The notes: generated from the letters alone by a model not told the origin. A stretch of DNA of 64,000 bases from an uncultured virus (IMG/VR IMGVR_UViG_3300020411_003822) (IMGVR_UViG_3300020411_003822), one strand, 5' to 3'. Counted from the stretch's first letter, positions 3,193 through 55,497 are shown. Made by a program: numbers and translations.

Positions 3193-3273
3193 TCTAAATC
3201 TTAGGATTCCTGAGGCCCAATGTAATGAGGGCAGCAATAAAACGCTGTTTTCGACACACTAAACACTACAAAA

Positions 3274-3315
3274 GTCATGTCCCTAAGGGGGCGATGACCC
3301 ATTGTAATGAGGGGG
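3274..3315 (+). promoter_or_regulatory. Repeated CCCTAAGGGGGCGATGACCCAWTRTAWTGAGGG element
   Basis: Copies at 3281 and 4997, diverged copy at 34969, partial at 3217; each precedes a structured non-coding segment. Confidence 0.5.
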
Positions 3316-3335
3316 AGAGAACCCCTAATCTAAAC

Positions 3336-3870
3336 ACAATAGTTGGTGGGATTACGATCCCTCACGAACCAACTGGAGAATCCTCTTTTGCAAGAGGGTG
3401 TATCTGGTATCAATGGTTCACCAACTGTACACCAACGAGGAAATTACAAGCTTCGGGACTTATGTCCCTGGAACCTCGTTGATGCTAAGGAACGAGACGG
3501 CTCGGAAGCGAATCCGAGCCATTAGAATACGGCATAGCAGGGGCAAGTAATCCCTGTCCGTAGGACAATCCCGAAAGGGCGAAGTTCCTCACGCCAACTT
3601 CATGGAGCAGAAGTTGGTACAGTAAGCCATAATGATTGAGGTTTGCGGCATGCGAGGATGATGAAATGAGTAAGAGGCTTTGATAACACTCCGTCAATTC
3701 GGAGGGAATCTATCATCGATTAGACATGTATTGAGTGCATAATTCGCAAGATGAAATGCATAACAGGACTCAGGTTACTCGGTTCTAACGGTCTTTGACC
3801 TATGAACCAGTCGATACGCAGCAATTTATTGCTGAGGAAATTTGAGAAAATGGCGCAAATCAATTAATCA
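3336..3870 (+). ncRNA. Candidate large structured non-coding RNA
   Basis: No credible ORF; many stems (AGTTGG..CCAACT, AACGAGG..CCTCGTT, GGCTCGGA..TCCGAGCC, CCCGAAAGGG); bounded by TCTAAAC and ACTTAAC motifs. Confidence 0.5.
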
Positions 3871-3900
3871 ATCACTTAACACTTAACACAAACTAAACAC

Positions 3901-4191
3901 ATGTCGTCCAAGAAGGAACAGACAGAAACATGGCAAGAGGCAGTCAAGAGGATTCGAGAAAATAATTCGCATCTAAGGAACAGCCACCGCCATACACAAA
4001 GTGGGTTCAATAAAGAACGCCGACAGAAACTCAATGCAAAAGGCATTGGAGTAAATCGGGGAGTGAACACCACTTCACAAACAAGAACTTGCAATGGTTG
4101 CGGAAGATTAGTGCACGCAAGAGGGGTGCATCACACCTCTCAAAGCACACTTAATTTCTGCAAGTCATGTGCAAGGTTCTTTGGAAGATAA
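3901..4191 (+). CDS. Basic zinc-finger protein
   Basis: CNGC...CKSC; preceded by tandem ACTTAAC ACTTAAC..ACTAAAC. Confidence 0.65.
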   Translation: MSSKKEQTETWQEAVKRIRENNSHLRNSHRHTQSGFNKERRQKLNAKGIGVNRGVNTTSQTRTCNGCGRLVHARGVHHTSQSTLNFCKSCARFFGR

Positions 4192-4240
4192 CACAAAATG
4201 CCAACAGGGGCGCTACCATAGTGCCCCTGTTGGTCTAAAC

Positions 4241-4621
4241 ATGAACTTTACAGACGCGAAAGCATGTGTATTGGCTTCATACAATGGCGTAGAACAATTT
4301 TACCGTAGGTGCCACATGGCAAATAGCACTTTAGCCGGTCTAACTGGCAACAAAGTGGTATTCGGACTCGCTAAGAGTTCAATTACGGGTGTTCAGGGCG
4401 GCCATGTATGGACTGAAACACCTGATGGCGTAATCCAAGATGCATTGGAGGACTATTGGTATGACCATGAGCACATACCTCCTCAAATGCACGAATTTCT
4501 AATCAACAACTTCTATGGGGAAGGACGGCCACTTCGAGAGTGGCTCACCCAACCCATGATTGATTTAGCCGAGGCTGGGGGAAACCCCATCCTCGAATGG
4601 AGAATGTCAAGAGGTGTATGA
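4241..4621 (+). CDS. Hypothetical protein (weak transglutaminase-like C/H/D pattern)
   Basis: Start at TCTAAAC-ATG; RRCH...GHVWTETPDGVIQD. Confidence 0.55.
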   Translation: MNFTDAKACVLASYNGVEQFYRRCHMANSTLAGLTGNKVVFGLAKSSITGVQGGHVWTETPDGVIQDALEDYWYDHEHIPPQMHEFLINNFYGEGRPLREWLTQPMIDLAEAGGNPILEWRMSRGV

Positions 4622-4628
4622 TCTGAAC

Positions 4629-4979
4629 ATGATCCAAACGCAACAAATGGCGAAGGATTTAGGCACAGCCTTGAATAATATTCTGTGGGAAAAATACAGG
4701 AATTATCCCTGGCTGATTATACATTATCATAGATCTTTGAACAATACTTTCCTCATCGATATGGGGGAAGACAAACTTCGAAGAATGTATGCAGTATTGG
4801 AAGAATACGGAATCAAACCAAGTATTGCTGCTCTCAACGAGCATCAAAAACCTGTGATTAGTTACCGATTCTTCAACAGGAAAACAAATCAAGAAGAATA
4901 TTGGGATTTTCAATTTGAATGGGTGGCTTGTAATGAGGCAGCCCGACTTCAAATTGACCTAATTCCAGCATCGAACTGA
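4629..4979 (+). CDS. Hypothetical protein
   Basis: Starts at TCTGAAC-ATG; stop is the TGA of ACTGAAC at 4975. Confidence 0.65.
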   Translation: MIQTQQMAKDLGTALNNILWEKYRNYPWLIIHYHRSLNNTFLIDMGEDKLRRMYAVLEEYGIKPSIAALNEHQKPVISYRFFNRKTNQEEYWDFQFEWVACNEAARLQIDLIPASN

Positions 4980-5019
4980 ACACATATGAGTCACCCCCCT
5001 AAGGGGGCGATGACCCAAT

Positions 5020-5370
5020 ATATTGAGGGATAGTATTCCCTCACCAATCATGTAGCTAATTGGCTGAGGAAAAGGCCATTGATCGAGTGCGAAGAAAAGT
5101 AACGAGGGAAAAAAAAGACACAGCACTCTCCCTTACGACATGACAGGGGTAAAACCCAAACAAATGCCTATTGAGAAGGGCAGTTATGAGGTCGAGCAGA
5201 AGAAGCGAGCACGATAGTGTGAGGACCTTACTTCGCTACCCGCCGAGTAAAATCGGTGAAAGACCAATGATTACTGCAGCGAAAGCACCACCAAACCAGT
5301 TTAATTACAGGTAGTGTGGCTTCAAAATAGGAACTGAAAGAATTTGCAGGTAGCAATTGGAGACGGGAAC
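5020..5370 (+). ncRNA. Candidate structured non-coding RNA
   Basis: ORF-free; hairpins (TGAGGGA..TCCCTCA, GGGTAAAACCC, GCGAAAGC); ends at ACTTAAC. Confidence 0.35.
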
Positions 5371-5557
5371 TATACACTTAACATGAACAATATTATCATA
5401 GGAGATAGGATGAAACGCTACGAAGTAGTAACTGAAGAAAAAGAAAAATATGGAATGAAGGTAACAGTCATTCGATTCAAAAGATACAGACCGATAGCGA
5501 AATATGATCCTTTCTCAATGTTCTAATCCCATAAGGGATACTTTACAATAATTTGTA

Positions 5558-5600
5558 CCACAAACCCCCCAAGCGGTGAGCCGTTTGGGGGCTTTTGTGG
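5558..5600 (+). terminator. Strong hairpin followed by ATGAACTCAACA
   Basis: CCACAAACCCCCCAAGCGG-TGAG-CCGTTTGGGGGCTTTTGTGG; the same ATGAACTCAACA follows the 12088 terminator. Confidence 0.45.
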
Positions 5601-5794
5601 CATGAACTCAACACAAACCGACTCGCAACCATCGAGCCAAAGAAAATATGAGATAGAAGAATGAATCGCATGCGGGGTGGGTTGGTCTGTACTACTATAC
5701 ACTTAACACTAAACCTGGGGAGTGCTTTGATTGTTTACACAGGGAACGGAGCCTCGGTTTGATCACCAAATAGCCGAAAAAACAATCACTTAAC

Positions 5795-6240
5795 ATGAAC
5801 AAATCCTGAGAGGTAAGTCGATTTATCGACTAATGTATCTCCAGGTGTTGAAGGTCACAAGAGGCAGAAGCCAATTCTGACACGAAGACAGATATTGAAG
5901 AAACCAATGCATCTTTTGAGCGAAACTGTCCGTCACGAGGGGCGAAAGCCCGAAACTGTTGGCGGCGAGGCGAATGAGGATGCATTGGTGGAACAGAACT
6001 GTGGCGCTCTCCTTTGGAGAGTCGATTTGAGAGAGTGGAAAAGGTCTAACATCAGACACCGCCACAACATCAGGGATGATGGAAAATGTTTGGAATAGTA
6101 ATGTCGTGAAGCATCACGGCTGGAGGGCAGAGGTTCTGAGAGGAACTAAAACCCTTCATACACCATATCTGATTCAAAGTTGGTATCGGTCACACAAACC
6201 GATACAGCCCCATGTGTGGGGTCAATAGAACCAATTGTGA
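5795..6240 (+). ncRNA. Candidate structured non-coding RNA
   Basis: ACTTAAC-ATG opens only a 4-codon ORF; stems CCTGAGAG..CTCCAGG, CCAATGCATC..GATGCATTGG, GGGCGAAAGCCC, CTCTCCTTTGGAGAG. Confidence 0.45.
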
Positions 6241-6248
6241 AACTAAAC

Positions 6249-7742
6249 ATGGCGAGTAAGTCAGGGAAAGGAGCCCCGTCAGGGGGCAATGGAAAGAAAT
6301 TAGGACAGAAAATGCAGAAGAAGATCGCTGCCATGCTTATGGCAATGATTGGCTTTGCGAAACTCTGTCTTGGAATGAAGAAGAAGAGCGAAGAAGGCAA
6401 CCCAGTGTTGCGTGTCACACCGCAGGGCGATTCAGGTAGAGAATACCTATTGACTGTAAGTGACCCAGCAGAAGTGAAGACCTTAGCCAGTGAACAGGAT
6501 AGGTTAGCGGCCATTATGAGTGGCCAAGAAGATCCTAACATCACAAAGGCAAATACAACCGGTTTGAATAAGCAGGTTGAGAAGGTCATGAAGTTACTTT
6601 CATCGTTGCAGAACCTGGAACGGTATGCAAACATGGTGTTTGGTATTGGTGATTCACCAAATCAGATTAACCTAATCATGCCGGACAAGAAGACGAAGTT
6701 CAACTTCTCAATGCGCGACTTGAAGCGGTTGGTCGGAATGGCCAACAATGCAACAGGAAACAAGCGTATGGAGCAAATGAACGAAATCGATTTCTGCATA
6801 AAACTTCTCGCAATGCAAGGGCAACTTGAGGTTGGCAAAACCTTCAACGGGCCCTCATTAGTCGTGGTATACAAGCCCAATAAGAAGGCAGTAAAGTTCC
6901 ACGAAAAGAAAGTCATGTATTGCATGACAATGGAAAACGGAATACCAACATGGAAAAAAGGCAACCTCGAACTCGTTGCACGAGACAAGCGAGGCAAGGT
7001 CGTATTCTGGACAAAAATCAACAAGGAATTGAAGAACGCAAGATTCGTTGATAAGACCAACAAGAAGGCAGTAGCCAAAGATTGGTTTTTCCAGATAAAA
7101 CAAAAACATGGTAAATGGGTTTTGGACAAGAAAACGCAACAAGTCCTACAGGCAGCCAAAGAAGCGGGTGTCTTGAAGGGCTACTCATTCGGAAAGGAGT
7201 GGGCTGACGACATTGAAGCACCAGTAAAGAAGTTGAAATACACTCTCGCTGGATTCATTATGTCTACAACAAACGCAGTTAGCACAGGCGTGGGGCACAT
7301 TGTTCCAGCAAGTCTGAGAGACGCTTTTTGCAAAATCAGCCTCAAGAGACTTCTTGAAGGACACCCAGATGAAGTGTCCCTACTGAATGAAGAGAACACC
7401 GCCCTATTGGGTGAGTTGAAATCGTTGCTCATCTTGGACGACTGGAAGATCCCAGCAATTTTCACCACTAACAACAGTGAGTGGAGCCCATTTGATCCGA
7501 AAAATCTCAGTGAGTTAATGGATTCTGGACTGTTGAACAGCGTCATCAAGAACGATGTGAAGGCGCTATCAAACGCAGCATCCGCAGACCAACTGGAATG
7601 TGTTCCACATGCAAGATTGCTCAACCGGTACTGGAAATGGACCGAAGTAGCAAGCACATGGACTGCGAGCGAGAATCACGATGAGATGATTGACCTCGTT
7701 TCTGTACCTGCTCAAGAACCGGCACAAAAGTCGGCAGAGTAG
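6249..7742 (+). CDS. Large lysine-rich hypothetical protein (497 aa)
   Basis: Long ORF; start moved to ACTAAAC-ATG. Confidence 0.8.
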   Translation: MASKSGKGAPSGGNGKKLGQKMQKKIAAMLMAMIGFAKLCLGMKKKSEEGNPVLRVTPQGDSGREYLLTVSDPAEVKTLASEQDRLAAIMSGQEDPNITKANTTGLNKQVEKVMKLLSSLQNLERYANMVFGIGDSPNQINLIMPDKKTKFNFSMRDLKRLVGMANNATGNKRMEQMNEIDFCIKLLAMQGQLEVGKTFNGPSLVVVYKPNKKAVKFHEKKVMYCMTMENGIPTWKKGNLELVARDKRGKVVFWTKINKELKNARFVDKTNKKAVAKDWFFQIKQKHGKWVLDKKTQQVLQAAKEAGVLKGYSFGKEWADDIEAPVKKLKYTLAGFIMSTTNAVSTGVGHIVPASLRDAFCKISLKRLLEGHPDEVSLLNEENTALLGELKSLLILDDWKIPAIFTTNNSEWSPFDPKNLSELMDSGLLNSVIKNDVKALSNAASADQLECVPHARLLNRYWKWTEVASTWTASENHDEMIDLVSVPAQEPAQKSAE

Positions 7743-7749
7743 AACGAAC

Positions 7750-8050
7750 AGCAACAAGGGACTTCTCACAACTCCATCTTCGATAGAGAGAAAAAATAGA
7801 TTACAATGTGAATGGGGAAACGAGGGTGAACTGCCCGATGACATCTCCATGCCAGTAAATCCCACGAGGATTGCGCCGTAGGCAGTAGGCCGTAGGCTTA
7901 ATCGTGGGGCTAATGAGTAAACACCAACCGCAAACGGGTTCGAATCGGAGCGGTTCGGTATTCTTGATTCTCAATGAAATCAAAACAAGCACACGGATGG
8001 ATACCAGAGGGTGACGCCAATGAAGGTATCCATCCACTTGGTGCATAGGA
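7750..8050 (+). ncRNA. Candidate structured non-coding RNA upstream of tRNA-Lys
   Basis: CCCACGA..TCGTGGG enclosing two GCCGTAGGC hairpins; GGATGGATACC..GGTATCCATCC. Confidence 0.45.
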
Positions 8051-8068
8051 ATTTACAGAACACAAACA

Positions 8069-8142
8069 GGGCCTGTAGCTTAGCCAGGTAGAGCGTCCGG
8101 CTTTTAACCGGACGGCCAGGGGTTCGAATCCCCTCAGGCCCG
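8069..8142 (+). tRNA. tRNA-Lys (TTT)
   Basis: Acceptor GGGCCTG/CAGGCCC; anticodon arm TCCGG-CTTTTAA-CCGGA; T-loop GGTTCGAATCC; CCA not encoded; flanked by motif variants. Confidence 0.95.
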
Positions 8143-8161
8143 CTTAACACTAAACACGCAG

Positions 8162-8467
8162 GTGGAAAAAATGAAACTAAGCGAAATAAGAGAAAGATGT
8201 GGGATTGTACTACAATTACCAGCGAACAACAGGAGCAAAGAAAGATTGAAACTACCGGTTTCAATTGAGAACGGAAAGATATTGTGGGATAAAAGAACCC
8301 CAAACAATCTTCGTAAAGGCTCAATCCGCAAAGAACAACACGGACTATGGACTAAAATCTATGAGAATTGTGTTGCAGAAGGAACAATGTTCAACTGGGA
8401 AACGAGAGGAAATTCCATCACGCTTTCACAAGATGAACTAAGCCAAATCGTAGAAAGATTTGCTTGA
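8162..8467 (+). CDS. Hypothetical protein
   Basis: ORF; AGGTGG upstream of ATG at 8171. Confidence 0.6.
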   Translation: MEKMKLSEIRERCGIVLQLPANNRSKERLKLPVSIENGKILWDKRTPNNLRKGSIRKEQHGLWTKIYENCVAEGTMFNWETRGNSITLSQDELSQIVERFA

Positions 8468-8645
8468 GTTACAGACATTGGAGGAAATATACCTCGTTGC
8501 ACTCCAACAGCAGCGTCTCATTGACCTTTCGGGGTCAATGACTGCTTAGGATAATAGCCGTAAATGTGCCGGCTTTAACATTCCCAATTATGGGAAATCC
8601 GCCGATACAGGGGGTCAGCCCCCTGTATTGGCTCTAAAACTTAAC

Positions 8646-9020
8646 ATGAGTAAACTTCCAGTTCAAGTGAGCAGAGAAGGTGATCTAAATTTCAAAAGAG
8701 CCTCAAAGGCTTTCGAGAAATTAGCAAAGGCATCTAATGAAGGATGCGAGAAAAGCAAAGAACGGGCCGAGTCACATGCAAGTGATTGGGACGAACGAGC
8801 AGAAAGATGCCAAGAAGTAGGAACACAAACCGAAAATGTTGGCGGAAAATCAGTCGAGTTTGACTCGAATGATTGCAGATTAATGGCAAGAATTTGGAGA
8901 AATTGCACTGAACATGACCGAATTATGGTTATTTTGGGCGTTGGGACTGCTCTATTTGATGCACAGATCCCAACGAAGTTGGACTTACGAAATGGCGCAG
9001 AGATTAGAAGAGTCACATAA
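8646..9020 (+). CDS. Hypothetical protein; reads through the motif at 8907
   Basis: ACTTAAC-ATG start. Confidence 0.6.
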   Translation: MSKLPVQVSREGDLNFKRASKAFEKLAKASNEGCEKSKERAESHASDWDERAERCQEVGTQTENVGGKSVEFDSNDCRLMARIWRNCTEHDRIMVILGVGTALFDAQIPTKLDLRNGAEIRRVT

Positions 9021-9105
9021 GGCTAATATTGTCTATCAGACCAATAATCTTCATGCATCGTTAAATGTTATTAAGGAGCAGATAGAACTCCTCAAAGAAG
9101 ACTGA
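8914..9105 (+). CDS. Small membrane-anchored protein
   Basis: Motif to motif; N-terminal hydrophobic stretch. Confidence 0.6.
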   Translation: MTELWLFWALGLLYLMHRSQRSWTYEMAQRLEESHKANIVYQTNNLHASLNVIKEQIELLKED

Positions 9106-9107
9106 AC

Positions 9108-10064
9108 ATGGTAAGCAATAGCAGCACCGGTAAGGAATACAACCCTGGAGGGTTGAAGGCACTGACAAAATATTTCACTTACGCAGAAATTGGTAAGCAG
9201 GGATTAGGCAGTGGTAAGGTGGGCGATTTTGCGAATATCAACGAATTAGAAGGAAACTTCGACATATTGGAGAATATTGACGGAACAGTGGCAGGCTACA
9301 ACTGCCAACAGATTTCCATAGATGATGAAAGCACATGGCCCGTTTGGGTCCGAATCGAGGCACAAGGCTTCCGCATGGATAACATCCTGGAATCTTTTGG
9401 TTGCCCGTGCTCGACACCAACTCCAGTCGAAGACCCAATCAGGGGAGAAGTGTACTGTCAAGAATGTGGATACATCAATGACGGATTACAACACTTCGAT
9501 GAGGACATGGACATGGACCTTGCTGAAGATGAATACGAATACGAAGAAGACCAATACTATGGTTGGACCGAGAACGATCTGTTTAGGGCCTTCGGGCTCC
9601 ATGCTCAAATCAGGTTTGAGGAAACAGCAGTAGAATATCTTGAGTCAGAAGAGGAAGAACAAAAGAAGAGGATTGACCGAATATGGCAAGATAGCCGAAG
9701 GCCCTCTATACAGTTTAACTTCGATGCAGATGGATACTACATCGGTAAACGGGAACAACCTCCACCGTTGGAATACGATGCTCGTTATATTGCGGAAACG
9801 AATATGACCGTAAAAGTCAGGAATATGATGACTGGCGAGTATGTAACAAAAGTGATTCACAAAATCAGCAATGAATGGAGCCCAAACAGCGAAAGAATTG
9901 GGCTGGGAGTAACAATGAAATCCCAGCACGACCAAAAGGTATGGCACGCTCGTAAGCAGTTTGACGACCATTTCGCAAGATGTAACGGGCACCCAGGTAA
10001 CTGTCTTGAATGCCACAGAACCGACAAGCGGCTTCAAAAGTTGATTGCGCATAGATCCCACTAA
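9108..10064 (+). CDS. Protein with internal TFIIB-type zinc ribbon
   Basis: CPCS..VEDPIRGEVYCQECGYI; acidic middle; C-terminal CxxH..CxxC. Confidence 0.7.
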   Translation: MVSNSSTGKEYNPGGLKALTKYFTYAEIGKQGLGSGKVGDFANINELEGNFDILENIDGTVAGYNCQQISIDDESTWPVWVRIEAQGFRMDNILESFGCPCSTPTPVEDPIRGEVYCQECGYINDGLQHFDEDMDMDLAEDEYEYEEDQYYGWTENDLFRAFGLHAQIRFEETAVEYLESEEEEQKKRIDRIWQDSRRPSIQFNFDADGYYIGKREQPPPLEYDARYIAETNMTVKVRNMMTGEYVTKVIHKISNEWSPNSERIGLGVTMKSQHDQKVWHARKQFDDHFARCNGHPGNCLECHRTDKRLQKLIAHRSH

Positions 10065-10128
10065 AGAATGAAACTGGATTCTACGGAAGGAGTAAAACAG
10101 CGTAGGAACAGAAAACAGATAGCTGAAC

Positions 10129-10284
10129 ATGGCAAAGACACCGAGTGGAGAAAGACCACGAAAGAAATCGGTCCGAAAGGAGCGAAGAAAACATGGCAAA
10201 TACCGTAAAGGTGGCCGTAAAGGAGAAAGAAGTAACATTGGGGAACCAGGAAAAAACAATCCCCATGTTAAGAAAAAAATCTGA
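10129..10284 (+). CDS. Very basic 51-aa peptide
   Basis: GCTGAAC-ATG to the TGA of TCTGAAC; MAKTPSGERPRKKSVRKERRKHGKYRKGGRKG... Confidence 0.55.
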   Translation: MAKTPSGERPRKKSVRKERRKHGKYRKGGRKGERSNIGEPGKNNPHVKKKI

Positions 10285-10286
10285 AC

Positions 10287-10568
10287 ATGACTTCGGACAT
10301 TAAAGTGCTTGCAGCACTGGAGAAGGATGAGATTGACCCTTTCTGGGTAGACCAGAAGGGCAAATCAATGCGAGTGAACAAAATCACCCGCGATGTATGG
10401 ACTACAGTATTACCCTACGAAATAATTGGAACAAAGGATTTTGCAGAAATCACATATGTTGCCCCTGACGGCAAGATTGGATTTTACGAAATGCCTTTCC
10501 ACAGATTCAAATTATTCGTTGAGAGTGGAATCTTCCATCCTTTAGAGGTAATCGAGAACGAATACTGA
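10287..10568 (+). CDS. Hypothetical protein
   Basis: Motif-bounded ORF. Confidence 0.65.
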   Translation: MTSDIKVLAALEKDEIDPFWVDQKGKSMRVNKITRDVWTTVLPYEIIGTKDFAEITYVAPDGKIGFYEMPFHRFKLFVESGIFHPLEVIENEY

Positions 10569-10739
10569 ACATGACAACATATCCAGAGAGATTTGATGTT
10601 AGGGAGTTGGTTAAACTCGATATAGAGGAACTAACAGGATTACACTTGGCTCTAAGTGAAGATAAGAGGAGGGTTGATGACGCAATAGCAGTCAAAAACG
10701 GAACCAAAACACTTGGAGAGTGTAAAGAATAATCTGAAC

Positions 10740-11051
10740 ATGACCGAAACTATGACTGAATTAGTTGAGGATGAGACGATGATCCAGATACCAGCAGAAG
10801 ATTTTGCTTGGCTTATCGGAATAAGTAATGACGCATTGAAGGAACTCAAAAAGCACAGGGAAGCCGGAACTCGCATAGAGTCAGATTACCTGTATGAATT
10901 CATTCAACATATGGGAGATAAACCATTACACAAGATTCTTCTCGAAAATTGCATCGAACCGGAACCAATATGCTGCCTTACATGCGGCAGTTGTGATGGT
11001 TGCGATTGCGAAGAGATACAAGCAGCAGACGCAATGATTGCGTATGTATGA
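10740..11051 (+). CDS. Hypothetical protein with Cys cluster
   Basis: TCTGAAC-ATG; CCLTCGSCDGCDC. Confidence 0.6.
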   Translation: MTETMTELVEDETMIQIPAEDFAWLIGISNDALKELKKHREAGTRIESDYLYEFIQHMGDKPLHKILLENCIEPEPICCLTCGSCDGCDCEEIQAADAMIAYV

Positions 11052-11061
11052 TACAGAACAC

Positions 11062-11301
11062 GCCCTCATTGAGTAAAGATTGGAGCATCAGGCCAATCTT
11101 TCTCAAGTTCCATGATTGAGTGAAGTTGGAGTGTTTACCAATCTTCCTCAAGGAACCCTGCTTCAGTAACAGGTGGGGGCACCTTAACACTAAACACGCC
11201 CCCAGAATTGGTGAAGATAAGGCCGTGGACGAACCTGCAAAGGAAAGCCTCGCGGACGAATCTTGATTCAAGGAACCCCCTGCGTCAAAGCAGGTGGGGG
11301 C
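11062..11301 (+). ncRNA. Two tandem homologous structured RNAs (11062-11180 and 11198-11301)
   Basis: Each closed by GCCC(T/C)CA...TGGGGGC; shared TCAAGGAACCC..CTGC..CAGGTGGGGGC; separated by CCTTAAC-ACTAAAC. Confidence 0.6.
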
Positions 11302-11316
11302 ACCTCAACACTAAAC

Positions 11317-11688: not shown

Positions 11689-11707
11689 TAATTACAGAAC
11701 ACTAAAC

Positions 11708-12067: not shown

Positions 12068-12087
12068 ACAGAACACAATACAAATAC

Positions 12088-12122
12088 GACCCATCACTGG
12101 GAGCCAGTGATGGGTCTTTTTT
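12088..12122 (+). terminator. Hairpin + T tract
   Basis: GACCCATCACTGG-GAG-CCAGTGATGGGTC-TTTTTT. Confidence 0.8.
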
Positions 12123-12155
12123 ACGGCCCTCCCGAAAAGGGGGTATGAACTCAAC

Positions 12156-12746: not shown

Positions 12747-12752
12747 CTGAAC

Positions 12753-15902: not shown

Positions 15903-15904
15903 AC

Positions 15905-18235: not shown

Positions 18236-18237
18236 AC

Positions 18238-42771: not shown

Positions 42772-42773
42772 AC

Positions 42774-46270: not shown

Positions 46271-47932
46271 ACATGGACGAAGAATTCACCGTATGGAGAA
46301 TCCAAGAAATCGTCTTGGCCGAGGAATGCCCTCTCCAAGACAGATTTGACAGAGAAGAATTGTGGTGTGACGATGTGGACTACACGGGTGGTCGCCTCAA
46401 CTTCATCGCTTTTGTGAGCAATTGGCCTCACCCCGATATTTCGGCAACAGAGGCGAAGCAATTGAAGGAGTACCTCGAACGAAAAGTGATTAACGAAGCA
46501 GAACGCCAATATCCCAATGGCGCAAGAGCGCGAATTTACTTGCCCAGTGGCCCCATAGAGGCGTATTGGCCGGATGAAGACTGAACATGAAAACTGAATT
46601 GGCATTAACATTCAACACTGGAATGTTTAGGCGGGACGAGCCGTTGGTGATCTATTCATCCAAACATCTCGGCCCAGTTACAGCAGAATCAACAATAGCA
46701 AGAATGATTCACCCCAAAGGGAGAGGCATTGGCTTTGCAAAGGCAAAGGATACAGGAATGATTGGAACCTTTCCTTTGGAACGACTGGATTATGCAGTAA
46801 AAATGACAATATCTCCCGAAATGTGGAACTTACTATCGGAGATAGACACGATTCTTGACAGTATTCAATCGCACAATGAAGCTTATCGAATAATTGGATT
46901 GCTTGATGGCGAAGGGTTACTGGAAAAACACAAGGAAATCAAAACAATCAGGGATAAAGCCAAAAAAATAGGTAGAGATATTAACCTTGATTACGGAGAC
47001 TGAACACATGTCCGAAGAAAAGACAAGTTTTCGTGAATGGATTGAGAGATTCTTGGAGAAAGTACCTGACGATGCGCTGATAAACTGCTGCATCGAGATG
47101 TCGTATTCTCAAGGAGCAAAAGGCGGTAAAGAGATCATGGTGACTGGTCTGCATCCTAACGATGCAGATTGGCAAAAGAAATACCCAAGCAGTAAAGATT
47201 GTTGGGGTGGAAACCCAGTAAATCGCGCCAAAGACTGAACATGTCGAGCGAAATTGACGACAGTGAGGATGGATTCGTTTGCCCACAATGCGATAAACGA
47301 TTCCAAGAGGGAGAATGTATGCCTGCAGTTGCTTTAGCAGCGCAAATCGGAAGAGAAGAAGATGTTGTATTATGTTCAATAAGATGTCTGGTAGGCTTCT
47401 TGAAAGAGCACGCAACTAACTGAACATTGAAAAGGAGAAGCATCTTGGAGAGAATTGGGCCGGAGTTTCTGATTGCTTTCATATCTTCTTCAACTTCAGG
47501 TGGTGGTTGGAAGTTTGGGGTAAACTTCCTCCTCTCCGGTCCACCTTAACTTAACATGGCAGACGACTTGCTGAAGGGAGTAGACATGGATTCTACATGG
47601 AGTTGGTACGGGGACTTGGAAGAGGTCAATCTCTTTACATACAGAGGGGAATTTCATAATGACAATTCCATTATGGTAAAAATAGTAAACGAAGAGGGGG
47701 ACAAATTGAAGGTCCGTTTTCACATTCAAGAGGTAGAGATCCTTGAAGTAATCAAGGCAGCTACCGAGAAAGACGAACTACTTGAATTACTGGACAACAT
47801 TTACGGCCTCCTTGAAGGAATGGCAGATGGAGCGGAAGACACAGAGGATTACGATGATAGCGAGAGAATCTTTGCAAATGCAAGAGATCGTGCGCATCGT
47901 GCCTGGGCTATCGCAAAGAACCTAAACTGAAC

Positions 47933-49201
47933 ATGAAGTTTTACACAGATGAAGGCAAATGCCTTAGGTGTGGGAAGAAACTTTCAGATCAAACATCAAT
48001 TGATTCTATGGTGGGTCCTGAGTGCAAAGGTTTGCACTGGAACCCCTTGAATACAGTAAAAACCGTTGTGAGCATATCGAAGTATTTGGATCCGAGAGGA
48101 ACCGAAGGCGATTCGGAGAGGAATCCAAGAGAATTTATGGAAGAAATGGAAGCAGACATTTTGTTTGCTTGCAAAAGCAAGGAATACACTTGGGAATCCG
48201 ATAATTACACAGGAAAACACGATGTAACGGAATTTGCTTTCGATGTCGAAGTATGGGTAAGAGCAGAGAAATTCTGCTCAATAATAACCTCAGGTTATGA
48301 AGATAAATTCAAGGAAGCAGTGGAATTGTCTCCAATCATCAAGATTGGGAATTTGAACAGTTGCCAAAAGCAACCGAACTTCGAAAATGTGGAAACACAG
48401 ATAAGGTTCGAATGGGTGAAATTCTACGGAATCGTATTTCCTGACGGAAGTATGAGAAATGGAATAATTGAAGCATTGGATCTGAATGAACAGGAATTTG
48501 CAATGATACCGAACAGTTTTGATGACTGGAATGAAAAGATATTGTCTCCATTCAAAGTGAATGTTAAGAGAATTTTATTTCAAGAGGAATTCATTGTAAA
48601 AATGAAAACTATGAAATTCATCTACTGTGATCCAATCGTAAATGCGATTACAGGCGATGATTTAGATTACAAGGATAATTACCCAGCGTGCCATGAATGG
48701 GAGTTTAGTGATAATCCGAGACTCGTAGAAGATTACTGGGCCGAACAAGTAGATTACAATCACGATGTCTATTGTGATGCAGTATTGTGCATAAACCATC
48801 TCCATTTCCTTCCTAATCTGAAATACAGAAAAAAGGAAATAGACGAATACGATGATGGACTGACAAAATGCATCCTTCGACAACTGGAGAAATGCTACTC
48901 GGAATACATGGAAGGTATGCCATACTGGTATGACGACAGTGATAACTTTGAATATTTCAATCAAAGAGTTTGTTGGTATGCCGCCAGGACAATCGCAAAG
49001 AACATCGGGCAATGTATTGGAAACATCACCCAAAATATGCCAGAAAAACCAGAGATAGAATTGACGAATGCCTTTGAAGGATTGAAAGATAAGGACAAGT
49101 ATTGGTCTTGGGTAAAAAAACTGCGGGAATACGATTACTACGGATTCGGCAGCGCGGATACAGATTTCCTCAATGCAATAAAAGAGGGAGCAGAACTGAA
49201 C
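47933..49201 (+). CDS. DUF6011-type zinc finger fused to an unknown domain; no stop before the motif at 49195
   Basis: CLRCGKKLSD..S....GPEC. Confidence 0.65.
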
Positions 49202-49546
49202 ATGTCAGGAACACCGTGGGGTAATCCCAGTGGAGTAGAAGCAGTTGCACCTGGAATAGACTGGGTGATAACAGGAAGGCACGGAGGATTGCGTGTTTCA
49301 AACGCAATCGCCAAAGAGGCAGGTATCAATCGATTACTTGCGTCAATGGGAGGAATGGGTGTCGGTTTAGCAATATACGAACGCCAGCATTGGTGGTTCG
49401 AAGAAGACTGTGCGTGGAGCATAGCAGTACTATTGCTACCGCAGCATTTCTCCGAAGAAAGCCAACAGGCAGCCGAACAATGCGCAGAACTTTATTTCCC
49501 TGAAGCATTTGCATTAGTCAAAGAACACAGGGAGGGTATTGAATGA
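49202..49546 (+). CDS. DUF7007-like protein
   Basis: TPWG...APGI..V.T..HGG...WFEEDCAW; starts at an in-frame internal motif. Confidence 0.65.
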   Translation: MSGTPWGNPSGVEAVAPGIDWVITGRHGGLRVSNAIAKEAGINRLLASMGGMGVGLAIYERQHWWFEEDCAWSIAVLLLPQHFSEESQQAAEQCAELYFPEAFALVKEHREGIE

Positions 49547-49676
49547 GCGAGAAAATTAAGGTAACAAGAGAAGAATGGCTTGAATATACAAGAATCATTC
49601 AAAAACAACTCAGTAGAAAACGATACGAGCAAACATTTCGTTATGCTTGGAACGGAATAGAACTGATAGACTGAAC

Positions 49677-49931
49677 ATGACTCTTATTGACGCAATCAAG
49701 CGAGAGATTACTGTAAGGCATACATGCAGAAGGTGCAACCGCCCTTTGACGGACAAAGAGTCAATTCAAAGAGGTATAGGCCCCATCTGTTTTGCAAAGG
49801 AACAAAAAGTTCGCCCATACCACTACTATGATTACAGGTTGGGCAAAACTGAACATGAGTCTCATAGAAGCGATTATGCGAGAGATGGAAGGAGGCGAAC
49901 AAGTTGTTTGTCAAAGATGGAGGAACCATAG
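49677..49931 (+). CDS. DUF6011 zinc-finger protein
   Basis: CRRCNRPLTDKESIQRGIGPIC. Confidence 0.75.
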   Translation: MTLIDAIKREITVRHTCRRCNRPLTDKESIQRGIGPICFAKEQKVRPYHYYDYRLGKTEHESHRSDYARDGRRRTSCLSKMEEP

Positions 49932-50736
49932 ATCTGAATACAGACCAAGCGGAGAAGCTATTGACATTGAAGGAGGCGGATACCACGCGAAATTAATTCC
50001 TAAAGCAACAGCAGCAGAATTTGTTCGAACACACCACTACAGCGGTTCATATGTAGCCGCAAGAGTAAATGTGGGGATGATTCGTGATAATGCTGAAGGT
50101 GGACAGGAACTTTGTGGAGTAGCCGGATACTCTGTACCAATGTCTCAAGCAGTGATTCCAAAATGGTTGAACTGTGAACCAGAAAACGGTATTGATTTAG
50201 GAAGGTTTGTTCTTCTCGATGATGTACCTGCAAATGGTGAAACATGGTTTCTAAAACAATCATTCAAACTACTCAAAGAGGATAAACCAGAAATTCAAGC
50301 CGTCATGGCTACATCTGATCCTTTGGTGAGAGTGAATTATTTGACAGGAGAAATTGTAATGCCAGGGCATGTGGGAACAATATACCAAGCCCACAATGGC
50401 GCATATCTTGGAAGAACAACGAAAAAAACAGTCATCAGTGGAAACGATGGCAATGTGATAACTGGTAGAACACTAAGCAAAGTTAGAAACCAAGAAAGCG
50501 GTAAGGATTATTCGTATCAGAAACTACTTGCTGCAGGCGCAACAGAAAAACAATCCTCCGAACAATGGAGAGATTATGTGAGAAGAGCAACAAGAGAACT
50601 GAATAGAATTCAGCACCCAGGCAACCATGTGTATGCTTGGCCTCTTGGTGAAAACAAAAAGGAAAACAGAGAAATCCGACAAACAATCGGAGCGATTAAT
50701 CCATCGGATTATCCGAAGGAAGTCGAAGTTTACTGA
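49855..50736 (+). CDS. Mom-family adenine-modification (GNAT-like) enzyme
   Basis: FVRTHHYSG, LGRFVLLDDVPANGETWF, SDP, GHVGTIYQAHN. Confidence 0.8.
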   Translation: MSLIEAIMREMEGGEQVVCQRWRNHRSEYRPSGEAIDIEGGGYHAKLIPKATAAEFVRTHHYSGSYVAARVNVGMIRDNAEGGQELCGVAGYSVPMSQAVIPKWLNCEPENGIDLGRFVLLDDVPANGETWFLKQSFKLLKEDKPEIQAVMATSDPLVRVNYLTGEIVMPGHVGTIYQAHNGAYLGRTTKKTVISGNDGNVITGRTLSKVRNQESGKDYSYQKLLAAGATEKQSSEQWRDYVRRATRELNRIQHPGNHVYAWPLGENKKENREIRQTIGAINPSDYPKEVEVY

Positions 50737-51328
50737 ACATGAGAAACCCTACTACGAAGGTGTTTGGAGTGTGCGATTTCTGCGGTTATGATGCAGAAGC
50801 AGCAGTAAAGTACCAAATGAAGCAAAACGGGGAAGAACTCTCAGAAGAGGAATACGAGAAAGAAGTCGCATTCTATCTCTTCGAGAGTCACGCTGACTTC
50901 TGCCCAGAGATGGCAAATATGGTCGAAGAATACGATAAGGAGAATACTGAACATGCCACGAATAAGTGAGTTGAAGCATCTCCTAAGAGAGATGACAGGT
51001 TTTATTGGCGCTACAATTCTAAATGTAGCAATAGGAGACGGAGGAGCTTTGTCCTTGTATGTTGTAGACAAAGAAGGGCAAGGCAATTGGTTAGACATCA
51101 ATAGTGATCCAGAAGGAAATGGTCCTGGCTGGATTCACATAGAAGAAGACGGAGGAGACCACGGTTTCAATCCAGGAACAAAAGAGGAATTGAAAAAAAA
51201 GATTATCAAAGAATACGAAGGGATTGATTTCGCTGACAGGATTCATCCAGCCTTCCAAGAAGAGGGTAAGGACGAAGATTACAGCGTAAGAGGAAAACTT
51301 GATGGATTTGGTAATCGAATTACTGAAC

Positions 51329-51574
51329 ATGGCGAGAACCGCAAGGATCAAGCAGAAGATAATTCAGTGCCTAACTGAATACGGAGAGGCAAGCAGCCAA
51401 GAGGTGTATGCTTATGTCAAAACATCAATGAGGCACGGGGCAACAATGAATCAAATCAGTAACCTCTTGTCAAAAGACAAGAGAATTGAAAAAACTGGCA
51501 TGACAAGTGTAGGAAGAGTCACAATGGAATCATACCAAGTAGCAACTTGGAAATTGAAGGAAGACAATAACTGA
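51329..51574 (+). CDS. DUF3860-like winged-helix protein
   Basis: MRHGATMNQISNLLSKDKRIEKTG. Confidence 0.75.
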   Translation: MARTARIKQKIIQCLTEYGEASSQEVYAYVKTSMRHGATMNQISNLLSKDKRIEKTGMTSVGRVTMESYQVATWKLKEDNN

Positions 51575-51895
51575 ACATGCGCAAGTACAAGGTAGCGTTG
51601 TCTCAAACAATTTATTGGGACATTGAAGTGGAAGCTGAAGATAAAGAGTCAGCAATAGAATTAGCAAAAGAAGAGGCATCGTTAGATGCCGCCAGCGATG
51701 GTGGTAAATTGAGAGTAGATGATGTCCAATGATAATTGAACTCACAAGAAGGGACGCAGAGGTTTTGATTTCTTTAGTGCAACAAGCACGGGAAAAACAA
51801 GCAAATCAACCAACAGTTGCACCAGAGTTGAGAACAATGGCATTGGAATACTATGATGACCTCTACGGAAGATTGCGAAAACAAGTAAACTGAAC

Positions 51896-53035
51896 ATGCA
51901 CGAAGGAATACAATTTCTATCGTTGGGAGGGGGTGTAGATTCAACTGCACTCCTGGCTATGCATCTCTGTCGAGATGAAGCCGCAGAAAAACTCGGAATC
52001 AGTCGAGAAGAACTGGATAGCAAACTACCCAATTTCGAATGGGTTGTATTTGCAGACCCAGGCTCAGAGTGGCAATCCACTTACGACAACATCGAGTACG
52101 CTAAAATGATCTGCGAAAAGGTAGGGCTCAATTTCAAAATTGTAGTTTACATGCAGAGATATTACCGCCACATTGATACCAATGAGCGTATCAAAGATTG
52201 GCAATACAGAGCATTGGAAAAAGAAGACAAGGAGAATTGGAAAGTTTCAATCGAAAGACAAACAATATTTGAATGGCTAACAGAGTTAAAACAAGATGGC
52301 TCAAAAGGAAGCCTACCTATGTTGCCTGGTTCTTCTCATCAATGCAGTGACCGATTCAAAGGCGGCGTACAGAGAAAATGGGCTGACAAAGAGTTCGGAA
52401 AAGATACAAACAAAGTATGGTCGTTAGGAATCGAAGCGAATGAAGATAAACGACACAAAAGATTCACTATGAATCGAGGAGACAGCAAATTTCCTCAGCA
52501 CCATTTCGTGTATCCACTAAAGGATCTCGAAATGACAAGAGAAGATTGCAAAGAAATGTTACGCCACCTACAATGGGATTATCGGGGAGACGGCAGCGAG
52601 GTTGAAAAGTCAAGTTGCATGTGGTGCCCGTGGCTATCCGATTGGGAAGTTGTAAGACTGGTAGAAGATGGCGGACAAGGATTAGAAGAAGCGAAAGAAA
52701 TTGAAAGATTGTTCTATGCTTCTTTCGACAAACATGCAAGATGGCATGAATTGGGTAAACCAATGGTCCCTTCTGGCGTAAGAGCCGCACCTGGGACTCA
52801 CGCAAAGCCATTCCAAACAGGAGTTTGCACACATGCAGAGTGCAGTAAGTACGCACCAGGAAACAAAACTGGCAAAGGAACACTGATTCAACTAAGGTAT
52901 GTAGAAGACGAAAATGGAAAACTTGTGAGAAAAAGCACAGGAAAGAGGCTTACAATGGAAGAACATGAAGAAGCGATTATCAATGGTCGCTTTGCAGAAA
53001 CTGAACACAAGGGGGGCAGGGAGTCATCGTCCTGA
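51896..53035 (+). CDS. PP-loop adenine nucleotide alpha-hydrolase (PAPS reductase-like)
   Basis: SLGGGVDS, FADPG.E, YPL, KSSCMWCP. Confidence 0.75.
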   Translation: MHEGIQFLSLGGGVDSTALLAMHLCRDEAAEKLGISREELDSKLPNFEWVVFADPGSEWQSTYDNIEYAKMICEKVGLNFKIVVYMQRYYRHIDTNERIKDWQYRALEKEDKENWKVSIERQTIFEWLTELKQDGSKGSLPMLPGSSHQCSDRFKGGVQRKWADKEFGKDTNKVWSLGIEANEDKRHKRFTMNRGDSKFPQHHFVYPLKDLEMTREDCKEMLRHLQWDYRGDGSEVEKSSCMWCPWLSDWEVVRLVEDGGQGLEEAKEIERLFYASFDKHARWHELGKPMVPSGVRAAPGTHAKPFQTGVCTHAECSKYAPGNKTGKGTLIQLRYVEDENGKLVRKSTGKRLTMEEHEEAIINGRFAETEHKGGRESSS

Positions 53036-53067
53036 GGCATCCCATCCCTACGGATACCCTGCTCCCC
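53011..53067 (+). ncRNA. Small motif-flanked stem-loop RNA candidate
   Basis: GGGGGCAGGG...CCCTGCTCCCC between ACTGAAC and CCTAAAC. Confidence 0.4.
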
Positions 53068-55497
53068 ACCTAAACATGACTGAAACTGAACCAGTTGAGG
53101 TAAAAGTTCTACCCTATGAAGGATATGAACTGACGGAATGGGAATTGCGTAGCAATCCCGACAAAAATGGATTGAGAAAGATAGAAGGAATTGATTGCAA
53201 GACATCGTGGCCGACAGAAGTTGAAGTCGGACAGCACCTTGTAAGAAATAATCTCACCTTAGAAGAAGTGAAAAAAGTAGAACGAGGACCAATTACAACA
53301 TGGATCTTGGGAGAATACATGCACAACGACAAAATTGTACAGTACAATGTCGAGAACCACAACAAACAATGGGTAATCATACTTGAAGAACAAACTGAAT
53401 TAGTCCAAGCGGAAATCAAACTTCATCTCAAAATGCGAGAAATTGCGCATGAGCATGTGAAGAAAAAAATCGAAGAAGCTGAGGCTAAGGGGGAACCTTT
53501 GTTCAAACCTACACGCTTCCGACACAAGGAAACAGGAGAGATTGTAACTCAAATTAACTTGATGCAGATCAAGAATTACGAGAAACTCGATGACTGAACA
53601 TGACTGGACAGGAACCAGAACAGGAAAAGGTTGGAGTTTGTGGATACTGCGATTTTGTGCAGGGATACCACCCTCACAACATGTTGCGTATTGACGAGAA
53701 CCCACGATTAGCATATGACTTTTGCAAGTCGTGCGGAGGGCATCATTTGCAACCAACATCACAATGCAAGGATTTCATACCGAGAAATCCAGATGTGTAT
53801 GAGGGTTCGATTTGGTTTTGCCAGGGCTGCGGTTCTGGAACTGAGTTCGAAATCACAATGAAAGAGGCCTTGAAAAAAGCAGATTACTGAACATGGACAC
53901 ATATTGCAGTTTATGTGGGGAACCTTTTGACATTGGAGAATTTTCATACATGGAAAGATTCGATGCAGAAGAGGCATCTAAGATATTCCGCCTATACGGT
54001 TGCGGGATCTTATGGAAAATGGAAATGAATCCAGAATTGTCTTTGGAAGAGGCAAAGGAATTCAAATGTAGCCCAAGAAATGTTGAGATGAAACACCTTG
54101 CAGATATGGCAGGCGCATTAGGCGACATCATGGGCGATGATATTGACGGATTAGCATCATTGATGGATGGATACTGAAATGAGCAAAATCAAGGAAGAAG
54201 CGATTGACTTACGATCATCCTTGCACAAAGTAAGGGAAATTTGCAAGCAAAATGCAAAAATGATAAATGAAATCCCAAGCAAATGGACTCGTGCACAAAG
54301 CGCGAAAGAATTTACGGGATTAGCCGATTACATCGGATGCTTACTCATAAAGGACGATAAGGGAAGAGAAAAGGCATTATTGCGCTGGGCGAAAAAAAAC
54401 AAATGAATACTGAACATGGCTCACTATTATTGCAAAAGATGCAAAAGACAAATGAAAATATCTTGGCAAGCACCCACTACCAAAATATGTGCAAGGTGCT
54501 GCAGAGAAGAAAGAGAGAGTACAGGAAAACCGATTCCTGGTCCTAAAGGACTGAACATGAAAGAAAAGGCCGATTGGTCCATTTGCGTTGATTGGGAAGT
54601 CGATGAAAATGATTGGATAACAGAGGAAAGAACAGAAAACTTGGCGAAACTATCCGTCTGTTTACTGTTCAACCATCGCTTTCCGAAGTGGATTTGGAAG
54701 GCACTTTGGTATAATCTGCCCTGGAAAGCAGCAGAAGCCACAGAGAAATACATCAAAGAACATTCAGATATTTTGGATGAAAAAGGATGGCCAGAAGCGA
54801 ATGAATACATCAAGGAATTGAGAAAAACAATAAAGCAAACTGAACATGAGTTGGCGATGCCGATGTGATGAAGATGAATTGCCAATCCTACGGGGATTGG
54901 TAGATGAGATCCTCTGCAAAGCGGAGGAAATGGAACAAAGCACGAACCGCTTTCTAAGAGAGGTTGGTGCAGAATTGAAGAAAACAATTTGGGAATCTAA
55001 CAATGAACCCAAAAACGATGGTTCACCTATCTGGTGGCCGAGACACGAAACGATTAACGGCAACATCTGCTTAATCGAAGAGATTCTTGATGAGAACCAA
55101 GAACCAATTAAGATGCGTGTTAAACACGAATACTGAACATGAGTATCTGCGGACATTGCAATACGGAAATTACATCTGAACCTATGAGCAAAGGTGTATA
55201 TGGAGGGGACTGGATTTCCAGTTGCCCTATTTGCGAATGGTGTAGTGAAAGCGAAGAAGATTCGAAGATTAAACAGGGATTAACCCTTGAGGAGCTTGTC
55301 GAACATAAAGCCAAATTGAATAGCGTATATGCGAAATTACACGATCTTGTATTTCGAGCAAGAAGTGCAAAAGGAGCATATAGGCAACATTCGACCAGCC
55401 ATACTCCCAACAAATCATTTGTGAACAGAACTATGTCAGAAGAAATAATGGTGGAACTTGGTGAAGCCATGAATCAACTTTTGGACAAAACTGAACA

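Follow-up and report, generated by a model that had tools for sequence, protein, structure and literature searches.

The stretch analysed here, a 64,000-nucleotide sequence of an uncultured virus (IMGVR_UViG_3300020411_003822), carries a long one-strand array of small units, nearly all of them headed by one short word, the heptamer ACTGAAC or a close variant, most often fused to a start codon. This full 64-kb stretch is called the window below, and the motif counts cover the window only. The array lies between a TFIIB-like gene and a gene for an RNA polymerase A''-like subunit, and its gene content includes four DNA methyltransferases as well as Mom-like, PAPS-reductase-like, SprT-like, DUF932 and DUF6876 proteins, together with many products without Pfam match. 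In the feature lines, as in the rest of the text, a hyphen within the word marks the junction between the heptamer and the unit that follows.

3258..55497, plus strand: one-strand array of about 100 units, each headed by ACTNAAC-AY (108 copies of ACTNAAC, 87 fused to ATG)
8907..55141, plus strand: 75 exact copies of ACTGAACATG (0 on the minus strand, 0.25 expected)

A first-pass annotation of this DNA had reported about 75 exact copies of the word, on the plus strand only and with none in the flanks, and our recount agrees on each point, since ACTGAACATG occurs 75 times on the plus strand and 0 times on the minus strand between 8907 and 55141, where dinucleotide-preserving shuffles give a mean of 0.25 and a maximum of 2. 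The heptamer ACTGAAC is present 87 times on the plus strand and once on the minus strand, this single reverse-complement copy being inside a gene. With position 4 left free, ACTNAAC reaches 108 copies on the plus strand and 7 on the minus strand, the first at 3258 and the last at 55490, and there are none on the plus strand of the flanks (1-3257 and 55498-64000). An ATG abuts 87 of the 108 copies, giving ACTNAACATG (87 on the plus strand, 0 on the minus strand), while GTG and TTG abut none. As 19 of the 21 copies without ATG continue with an A and then C or T, the conserved word is ACTNAAC-AY, with C at -1 and A at +1. The region ahead of it, from -45 to -5, holds less than 0.15 bit of information per position in the window and in two complete relatives (G001 and G002), and a mild preference for A at -3 to -1 is the sole upstream bias of the window word. 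Here, in G001 and G002, and in a third relative (G003), the word displays the attributes of an initiator, that is a short conserved sequence over the proposed start, a pyrimidine at -1, a purine at +1 and orientation along the coding strand.

The relation of the word to its neighbouring open reading frames (ORFs) is close and variable. Of the 87 ACTNAACATG sites, 57 have an upstream ORF that ends no later than the junction, and in 38 of the 87 the word itself supplies this stop, TGA or TAA (offset -2, 2 nt ahead of the ATG); elsewhere, 21 upstream ORFs overrun the junction, with overlaps of up to 158 nt, 4 form in-frame fusions, and 5 sites have no upstream ORF. The annotation had the TGA of the word ending the upstream ORF about 45 times; the stop role stands and the count falls to 38 of 87. 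This role is not a general trait either, being restricted to this lineage: the word of G001 contains no stop, and 5 of 64 upstream ORFs use TGA in G002. Shine-Dalgarno (SD)-like words were found at 7 of 87, 8 of 101 and 4 of 66 array starts in three genomes, whereas the core blocks, in which operon-internal genes use GGAGG/GGTG-type SD words, have them at 18 of 29 and 16 of 38 starts. The word itself offers no GGAGG-type bases to an anti-SD sequence and, as it abuts the ATG, no spacing of 5-10 nt. One heptamer-bounded unit (35621-36147) contains three small ORFs in ATGA-type overlaps, with no heptamer between them.

Protein genes are not the only units to be delimited in this way. The annotation had extended the word to tRNA and non-coding units, to back-to-back "empty" copies and to copies behind the last gene before each terminator, and all of these were recovered. 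The doubled copies are ACTTAAC ACTTAAC at 3874/3881 and cCTTAAC ACTAAAC at 11182/11189; the copies after last genes lie at 35517 and 55490 (ACTGAAC ACC), with an ACAGAAC variant at 12068. A tRNA-Arg starts on the G of a word-borne ATG, a tRNA-Lys abuts a doubled variant, and an RNA-like unit at the head of the array is bounded by heptamers. Since it heads tRNA and non-coding units, the word acts beyond translation.

34890..34964, plus strand: tRNA-Arg(UCU), whose first base is the G of the ATG in the ACTGAACATG copy at 34881
8069..8143, plus strand: tRNA-Lys(UUU), with gCTTAAC ACTAAAC directly after it

Related arrays use other words. G001 carries ACCGCTC-ATG 87 times in 42 kb of its 127.6 kb, and G002 carries ACTGACC-ATG 60 times in 40 kb of its 128.8 kb, in both cases on the opposite strand to the A''-like gene, with hardly any copy in the rest of the genome. 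G003 again uses ACTGAAC, in 44 exact copies, at 27-48% protein identity to the window and with nearly no DNA similarity. Shorter loci add ATTGAAC-ATG (6 copies, L005), ACCGCTC (9 copies, L003) and ACTGACC (5 copies, L008), and two overlapping loci of a single 19-kb contig (L195 and L215) hold ACTGAACATG 20 and 16 times. That contig is binned in a bacterial metagenome-assembled genome labelled Legionellales, most likely by mis-binning. It is also the sole real array among the 43 stretches of species-representative genomes in which two words lie 230-260 nt apart, the remaining stretches having been set aside as chance matches or tandem protein repeats. Position 4 varies in every lineage, as illustrated by ACCACTC (12 copies in G001) and ACTAACC (4 copies in G002). 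The upstream ORF stops ahead of the junction in 86 of 101 cases in G001, where upstream ORFs end 7-8 nt before the ATG, and in 52 of 64 cases in G002.

The arrays of the window, G001 and G002 are linked by 36 homologous unit pairs, aligned at their N-termini in most cases, with a scrambled gene order and at least 20 gene families in common. Each member of a pair bears the word of its own lineage; the word therefore evolves in concert, which, judged from these sequence comparisons, implies a putative trans-acting reader owned by the element. By its position, the TFIIB-like protein is the obvious candidate for this reader. In TFIIB, the region contacted by the B-reader lies just upstream of the start site. 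Simple repeats were also noticed inside array units, such as (CAGA)n in G002 (reverse complement, ~28930-28960) and a GATTTGATTTGATTC-type tandem repeat directly after a heptamer-led ATG in G003 (reverse complement, 19207-19270).

The architecture of the array is set by its head, its terminators and its two flanking genes.

1708..2682, minus strand: TFIIB-like gene, divergent from the array head, at the equal position in G001, G002 and G003
2715..3206, plus strand: four 62-nt repeats with core CCGATGGCC, between the TFIIB-like gene and the array
3258..12075, plus strand: array head, with ACTWAAC/ACTCAAC variants, often doubled, around non-coding stretches, the tRNA-Lys and few ORFs
3265..3873, plus strand: non-coding RNA-like unit directly after the first heptamer and closed by a heptamer, with counterparts in G001, G002 and G003
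12088..12155, plus strand: hairpin and T6 terminator, GAAAA-loop hairpin, then ACTCAAC-ATG opening the next unit
35538..35620, plus strand: hairpin and T8 terminator, GAAAA-loop hairpin, then ACTAAAC-ATG opening the next unit
55498..55566, plus strand: two tandem hairpin and T-run terminators closing the array
56037..58985, minus strand: gene for a 982-aa RNA polymerase A''/Rpo1C-like protein, convergent with the end of the array; a TTCATACGG box lies 29 nt ahead of its ATG

Strong hairpin and oligo-T terminators stand at about five places of the array (5566, 12088 with T6, 35538 with T8, and 55498/55531). The units that start after a terminator carry stop-less variants of the word, namely ACTCAAC at 12149 and ACTAAAC at 35614 in the window and ACTCACC at 18149 in G002 (reverse-complement coordinates), and the word is the sole element common to these three starts. 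The annotation had taken the word for a dedicated unit-delimiting signal, neither a product of chance nor a mere coupling device, and this holds, as the word heads tRNA and non-coding units, follows terminators and changes blockwise between lineages. The observation is real, and broader than had been stated. Scans for sigma-70-type promoters remained at or below the shuffle level, and the count of T5 runs in the arrays (25 against 22 expected by composition) is uninformative as to oligo-T depletion. A second, small hairpin with a GAAAA loop (GGCCCTCCCGAAAAGGGGGT and similar) follows each array terminator, directly ahead of the heptamer of the next unit, at 12120-12145, 35591-35613 and 55531-55590 in the window.

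The non-coding stretch at the array head measures 600-830 nt and begins directly after a heptamer in three of four genomes, its counterparts lying at 69986-70806 in G001, ~13190-13900 in G002 and 18398-19065 in G003 (reverse-complement coordinates). The blocks GAACAGAAGGyGrGCTAyGA and CCGAGGAAGTT are common to the genomes, and another window unit (4982-5375) opens with a sequence resembling this head RNA. Rfam returned only tRNAs at gathering score in the window, and nothing credible at E<=1 in window positions 2600-12300 or at E<=5 in the head regions of the three relatives; an impression of RNase P-like conserved blocks was not supported. A guide function was rejected, as 0 of 4 genomes hold in this RNA a 7-mer able to pair with the word of the lineage (G-U pairs allowed, position 4 free). 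Tandem repeats with CCGATGGC as their core separate the TFIIB-like gene from the array; they number four in the window and several in G002 and G003, while G001 has ~100-bp tandem repeats instead at this location. The repeats could function as a replication origin, as promoters or as regulator sites, and those of the window (2715-3206) are a candidate origin or control region.

The TFIIB-like protein matches Pfam TFIIB, and PDB TFIIB chains match it across both cyclin repeats; the closest solved structures to the A''-like protein are archaeal Rpo1C/A'' subunits. Cellular A'' subunits measure about 390 aa. The A''-like protein and its homologues reach 810-983 aa, with a Pfam match that spans residues 77-707, and therefore contain a large insert. 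The complete relatives yielded neither an A' nor a B polymerase subunit, the A''-like one standing alone among the 47 and then 19 ORFs scanned; for this reason, the A''-like protein may substitute for a host subunit rather than belong to a full viral polymerase. The annotation had envisaged an RNA polymerase and TFB of the element's own, of which the TFIIB-like protein and the A''-like subunit were recovered and a full polymerase was not. The two genes bracket the array in the window, G001 and G002, and the G003 fragment shows the TFIIB-like side only.

Comparison with a related strain, held in the contigs of one DNA run (X2), revealed that the array is also a place of exchange. Where this strain departs from the window, the differing segments have the size of cassettes and their ends coincide with motif copies.

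37333..37584, plus strand: 252-bp motif-to-motif cassette, in frame and stop-less, missing in the related strain (joint 37332>37585)
38889..39169, plus strand: 281-bp motif-to-motif cassette with a 92-aa gene, missing in the related strain (joint 38888>39170)

Further joints are 39169>46266 (7,096 bp) and 46579>42095 (a rearrangement). Of the 22 joint ends, 15 are no more than 5 nt away from a motif, where 1.08 would be expected (P ~3e-15), and in 7 of 11 joints both ends fall on motif copies, with the crossover inside 10-12 common bases. The assembler works with 31-mers, and the word, being shorter, should not create false joins alone. The annotation had proposed that indel breakpoints in relatives would coincide with ACTGAAC, and in this single run they largely do. 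About 100 identical same-orientation copies of 10-12 bp thus serve as crossover points, so that whole expression units are gained, lost and reordered intact.

To account for these observations, we favour, with about even confidence, the reading of ACTNAAC-AY (-7 to +2) as an element-specific promoter of the initiator type, with leaderless RNAs as its products. Guided by a factor that the element encodes, RNA polymerase would begin transcription on the A of the ATG, and each unit would yield an RNA with the start codon as its 5' end, that is a leaderless mRNA, while the same signal would also initiate several non-coding RNAs and a tRNA precursor, the latter with 2 nt of leader. Array genes, which lack SD sequences, would be translated only if their AUG is 5'-terminal, and for this reason every one of them would need its own copy of the word. 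The reader, belonging to the element, would change together with the word, with all copies following, and this would explain why words differ between lineages. What recommends an initiator is the C/A step at the junction, the exclusive use of ATG, the absence of SD sequences and the use of the word before tRNA and non-coding units, to which are added its place as the sole shared element after terminators, the flanking transcription-factor genes, the concerted change between lineages, the ORFs that cross junctions, the box spacing of core first genes, by which leaderless messages would be normal in the family, and the RNA contig ends near junctions. Such ORFs (25 of 87 window sites) would be harmless if upstream RNAs read through, and awkward if RNAs end there. 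A minimal initiator, one of four options raised by the annotation, is thus the best supported of them, except that the full polymerase of its own that went with it was not found.

Several observations weigh against an initiator. Seven to nine bases, without a TATA or BRE-like element (BRE, TFIIB recognition element), are very little for an archaeal-type initiation complex; a full polymerase was not found, the A''-like subunit standing alone among the ORFs scanned (47, then 19); and resemblance among the TFIIB-like proteins does not go hand in hand with the word, as the protein of G003 (ACTGAAC) is nearer to that of G002 (ACTGACC) than to that of the window. The RNA data, assembled contigs from three metatranscriptome runs (X9, X13 and X19) of one study that carry no strand, end chemistry or raw depth, point in the same direction. 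Of 68 RNA pieces, the 24 listed, mostly the longest, were analysed, and 0 of 24 cross a junction, whereas random placement predicts 13.6 and gave at least 4 in each of 20,000 trials; the 8 listed DNA pieces all cross junctions, 1 to 8 each. Moreover, a depth-52 RNA contig ends exactly at junction 36147, and start sites with read-through alone would yield a continuous RNA cover.

Other properties of these contigs hint at unit-sized RNAs. Ends within 3 nt of a junction number 4 of 48, against 0.75 expected (P=0.007), and the first base of one contig is precisely the A of an ATG, at 33968. The contig at 35663-36147 spans the three overlapping heptamer-less ORFs and stops at the next heptamer. Left ends fall within 21 nt of a junction in 7 of 24 pieces, and right ends mostly 40-300 nt short of the next one. 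In X9, 4 of 30 bins of a 20-kb stretch have no RNA contig cover, which is not read as silence. Template switching, another of the four options, found no support: no leader-body chimeras at the word were seen, and the two joints of RNA contigs (42361>44589 and 39652>37622) lie 27-116 nt from motifs, although rare chimeras could escape contigs.

The most direct competitor of an initiator acts on RNA. An endoribonuclease of the element, or a co-transcriptional stop-start, would cut ACUNAAC-AY between C and A, and 20-kb units made as long precursors would be released as monocistronic AUG-starting RNAs. We consider this rather unlikely, and the evidence is divided. RNA cutting would explain why RNA pieces stop short of junctions that DNA pieces cross (0 of 24 against 8 of 8), why the depth-52 contig ends exactly at 36147 while others begin at or 1-6 nt from a junction, and why the contig at 35663-36147 runs through three heptamer-less ORFs only to stop at the next heptamer; the upstream stops before the junction (86 of 101 in G001, 52 of 64 in G002) and the word kept at 35517, behind a last gene that no gene follows, fit as well. 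However, contig breaks at low depth are weak evidence, 25 of the 87 window upstream ORFs would lose their stop codon, and the units behind the hairpin and T6/T8 terminators have no other conserved promoter candidate. In addition, no nuclease candidate appears among the annotated proteins, and nothing in the head RNA is complementary to the word (0 hits in 4 genomes). The cutting option of the annotation is therefore retained for the contigs that stop short of junctions and lacks its nuclease. A wider formulation, possible and on balance doubtful, makes the heptamer a true punctuation mark of a DNA element, at which RNAs would end and begin by cleavage or polymerase stop-start; with a factor co-evolving by lineage, each 20-kb unit would be resolved into about 40 monocistronic leaderless RNAs, and the mark would be the joint of cassette exchange too. 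We know of no such punctuation system in archaea or archaeal mobile elements. Initiation and cleavage or stop-start could also act together.

A role as a signal for translation only, by non-SD landing of ribosomes or by termination-reinitiation in polycistronic mRNAs, seems very improbable indeed. In agreement with such a role, 38 of 87 sites have the upstream stop 2 nt ahead of the ATG, and SD sequences are lacking in the array; but the word heads tRNA and non-coding units and follows terminators, it differs by lineage while core operon genes use GGAGG/GGTG-type SD words, the G001 word is stop-less with upstream ORFs ending 7-8 nt before the ATG, and many sites, with overlaps of up to 158 nt, leave no room for coupling. 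It is also improbable, if less so, that the word is primarily the crossover site of a site-specific recombinase encoded by the element, its position at the ATG keeping cassettes expressible. The joints (15 of 22 ends on motifs, 7 of 11 joints with both ends there, 10-12 common bases), the gene order scrambled between lineages despite at least 20 common gene families, the empty double copies at 3874/3881 and 11182/11189 and the serine recombinase (Resolvase) encoded in G001 would all suit a recombinase. Against this, the site is asymmetric, of 7-9 bp, without inverted-repeat arms or flanking conservation; no integrase family was detected among 102 window ORFs; and the fixed placement at the ATG and at the 5' end of a tRNA, the A at +1 in non-coding units and the uniform orientation bespeak an expression signal. 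Recombination at 10-12 bp of identity, combined with selection for intact units, gives the same picture, and a dedicated enzyme is for this reason unneeded; there is about an even chance that recombination at the repeats is a side effect of the expression signal, the breakpoints requiring no dedicated recombination role. The annotation had suggested the crossover core of a gene-cassette system, and the motif breakpoints agree with it, but the features that define integrons were not seen and short homology explains the breakpoints equally well. The imperfect inverted repeats of attC sites (~60-140 bp, with R''/R' cores) have no counterpart here, no conservation extending beyond the 7-9-nt word, and neither an IntI tyrosine recombinase nor an attI was recognized, with no integrase family among the 102 window ORFs (E<=0.001) and only a distant serine resolvase in G001.

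Several known systems share part of these properties. The late and intermediate initiators of poxviruses (TAAATG/TAAA) and the late TAAG of baculoviruses are short virus-specific words over the start site. They are likewise very short, fused or nearly fused to the ATG and read by virus-specific machinery. The present word differs from them by its archaeal host, its 7-9 nt, the lack of an A/T-rich upstream part and the overlap with the end of the upstream gene; it is also lineage-variable and heads tRNA and non-coding units, a complete viral polymerase was not found, and the start is proposed from sequence. The early promoter octamer of Mimivirus, AAAATTGA, is an exact word before a large share of genes, tens of bases upstream and intergenic. 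One exact word before many genes is the likeness; here, by contrast, there is no spacer and usually no intergenic DNA. The gene-start and gene-end signals of Mononegavirales and the transcription-regulating sequence cores of nidoviruses are junction words that define separate mRNAs. They too are short words at every gene junction, but of RNA genomes with RNA-dependent polymerases, whereas the template here is DNA and no leader-body chimeras were seen in contigs. Integrons resemble the array by their one-orientation small cassettes with gain and loss at a repeated core, and ACTTAAC/ACTCAAC fit the RYYYAAC core; unlike them, the array has no imperfect palindrome of attC length and no IntI among 102 window ORFs, and its word is tied to the start codon. 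In T4-type phages, the promoter-early stem-loop (PeSL) cassettes have repeated regulatory motifs that flank small genes of hyperplastic regions and serve modular shuffling, in the portions of the papers available to us (PMC2839356, PMC4122927). Breakpoints at a repeated regulatory motif (15 of 22 joint ends here) are common to both, as far as these portions describe them; a PeSL is there an intergenic promoter plus a terminator stem-loop, and the word here is bare, of 7-9 nt, fused to the ATG and present in about 100 copies in one array. A composite of promoter and stem-loop at each repeat was not found in the array, where terminators stand at about five places and most copies have no flanking structure.

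No published description of this word was found in the literature on archaeal viruses, magrovirus group D and Poseidoniales elements, the supplements of the magrovirus papers lying outside this scope, and among the matches listed for the word itself the papers look unrelated, several having it in primer sequences. What is new is the combination of features: in an archaeal element, a word of 7-9 nt is fused to the ATG and overlaps the gene before it, each genome holds about 60-100 copies in one strand-pure array, the words are lineage-specific and change in concert, and cassette breakpoints are demonstrated at them. Archaeal viruses are described, in the part of a review available to us, as having no RNA polymerase of their own and as depending on the host for expression (PMC5569661). 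The present element family has a TFIIB-like factor, a polymerase subunit and three private classes of signals, and one of these classes stands at the head of about 60-100 genes in each genome. As an initiator, the word would rank among the most compact promoters known for a multisubunit polymerase, and would provide a natural system for the co-change of start-site recognition and about 100 target sites; if cleavage or stop-start takes place, it would represent a new route to leaderless mRNAs. Either way, a regulatory word doubles as the joint at which an accessory region with many DNA-modification genes shuffles its cassettes. It also provides a simple sequence signature to find and sort these unclassified elements, which the literature links to abundant marine archaea.

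Outside the array, two other boxes were recognized besides the SD words of operon-internal genes. The first genes of core units, including those for the A''-like protein and a chaperonin, are preceded by a TTCAAACGG(Y)TGAAC box, with the ATG 29-31 nt after the first base of the TTCAAACGG box in 11 cases (window sites 59727, 59014, 838 and 62678, all on the minus strand; 5 in G001 and 3-4 in G002), and in contrast to the heptamer this box is conserved across lineages. The usual distance from TATA box to start in archaea would place a start driven by TTCAAACGG on the ATG. The box is probably a second promoter class giving leaderless mRNAs and, given this spacing and archaeal promoter geometry, leaderless messages appear to be normal in the element family. 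A third box, CGTAACGGTGTGACGGGTCGAGTTTAT, lies 25-50 nt ahead of two genes each in G001 (reverse complement, ~1125-1177 and 13005-13059) and G002 (reverse complement, ~67700-67751 and 79000-79051), in a large SD-using block, and may be a late promoter for abundant, perhaps structural, proteins.

As for the identity of the element, a marine metagenome contig (L001) is identical to the window, and relatives of the A''-like protein were found in metagenomes only. Scans of viral contigs with the A''-like protein and scans with the DUF932 array protein returned no close relative, and a scan with a TFIIB alignment confirmed none. The group D magroviruses of Philosof et al. (2017) have, in the text available to us, a thermosome, a resolvase and an RNA polymerase A, no capsid gene and an undetermined nature, and are defined by a DNA polymerase B tree (PMC5434244); later papers, again in part, regard group D as possibly plasmid-like (PMC10160649, PMC11706807). 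The marine origin and the thermosome subunit, resolvase and RNA polymerase A traits, seen here in G001 and, for the A''-like gene, in the window, recall that group as these texts portray it. Unlike group D so defined, G001, G002 and G003 have no match to the family B DNA polymerase PF00136 (0 of 3 records, controls positive; a very divergent polymerase is possible). The available texts on group D report no closed genome, whereas G001 (127,570 bp) and G002 (128,784 bp) are complete, closed with terminal repeats. Within the text of these three papers, supplements being outside this scope, the term "promoter" is absent, as is "motif" from that of PMC5434244, the only one checked for it. Group D magroviruses are thus the closest description of the element family, rather than an established membership.

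G001 further encodes the Resolvase (serine recombinase), which lies far from its array, as well as RusA, glycosyltransferases, an Rpb1 domain 5 and a Cpn60_TCP1 protein whose best matches are group II (archaeal-type) chaperonins, most of its large ORFs having no Pfam family. One of its ORFs, of 2,459 aa (L144:8517-15893, minus strand), combines DUF5824, an ATP-dependent DNA ligase, a TFIIS-type zinc ribbon and an FGase-like region, and the adjoining ORF, of at least 1,306 aa, joins a guanylate kinase to DUF7831; by their domain make-up, both of these giant ORFs look like fusion proteins or polyproteins.

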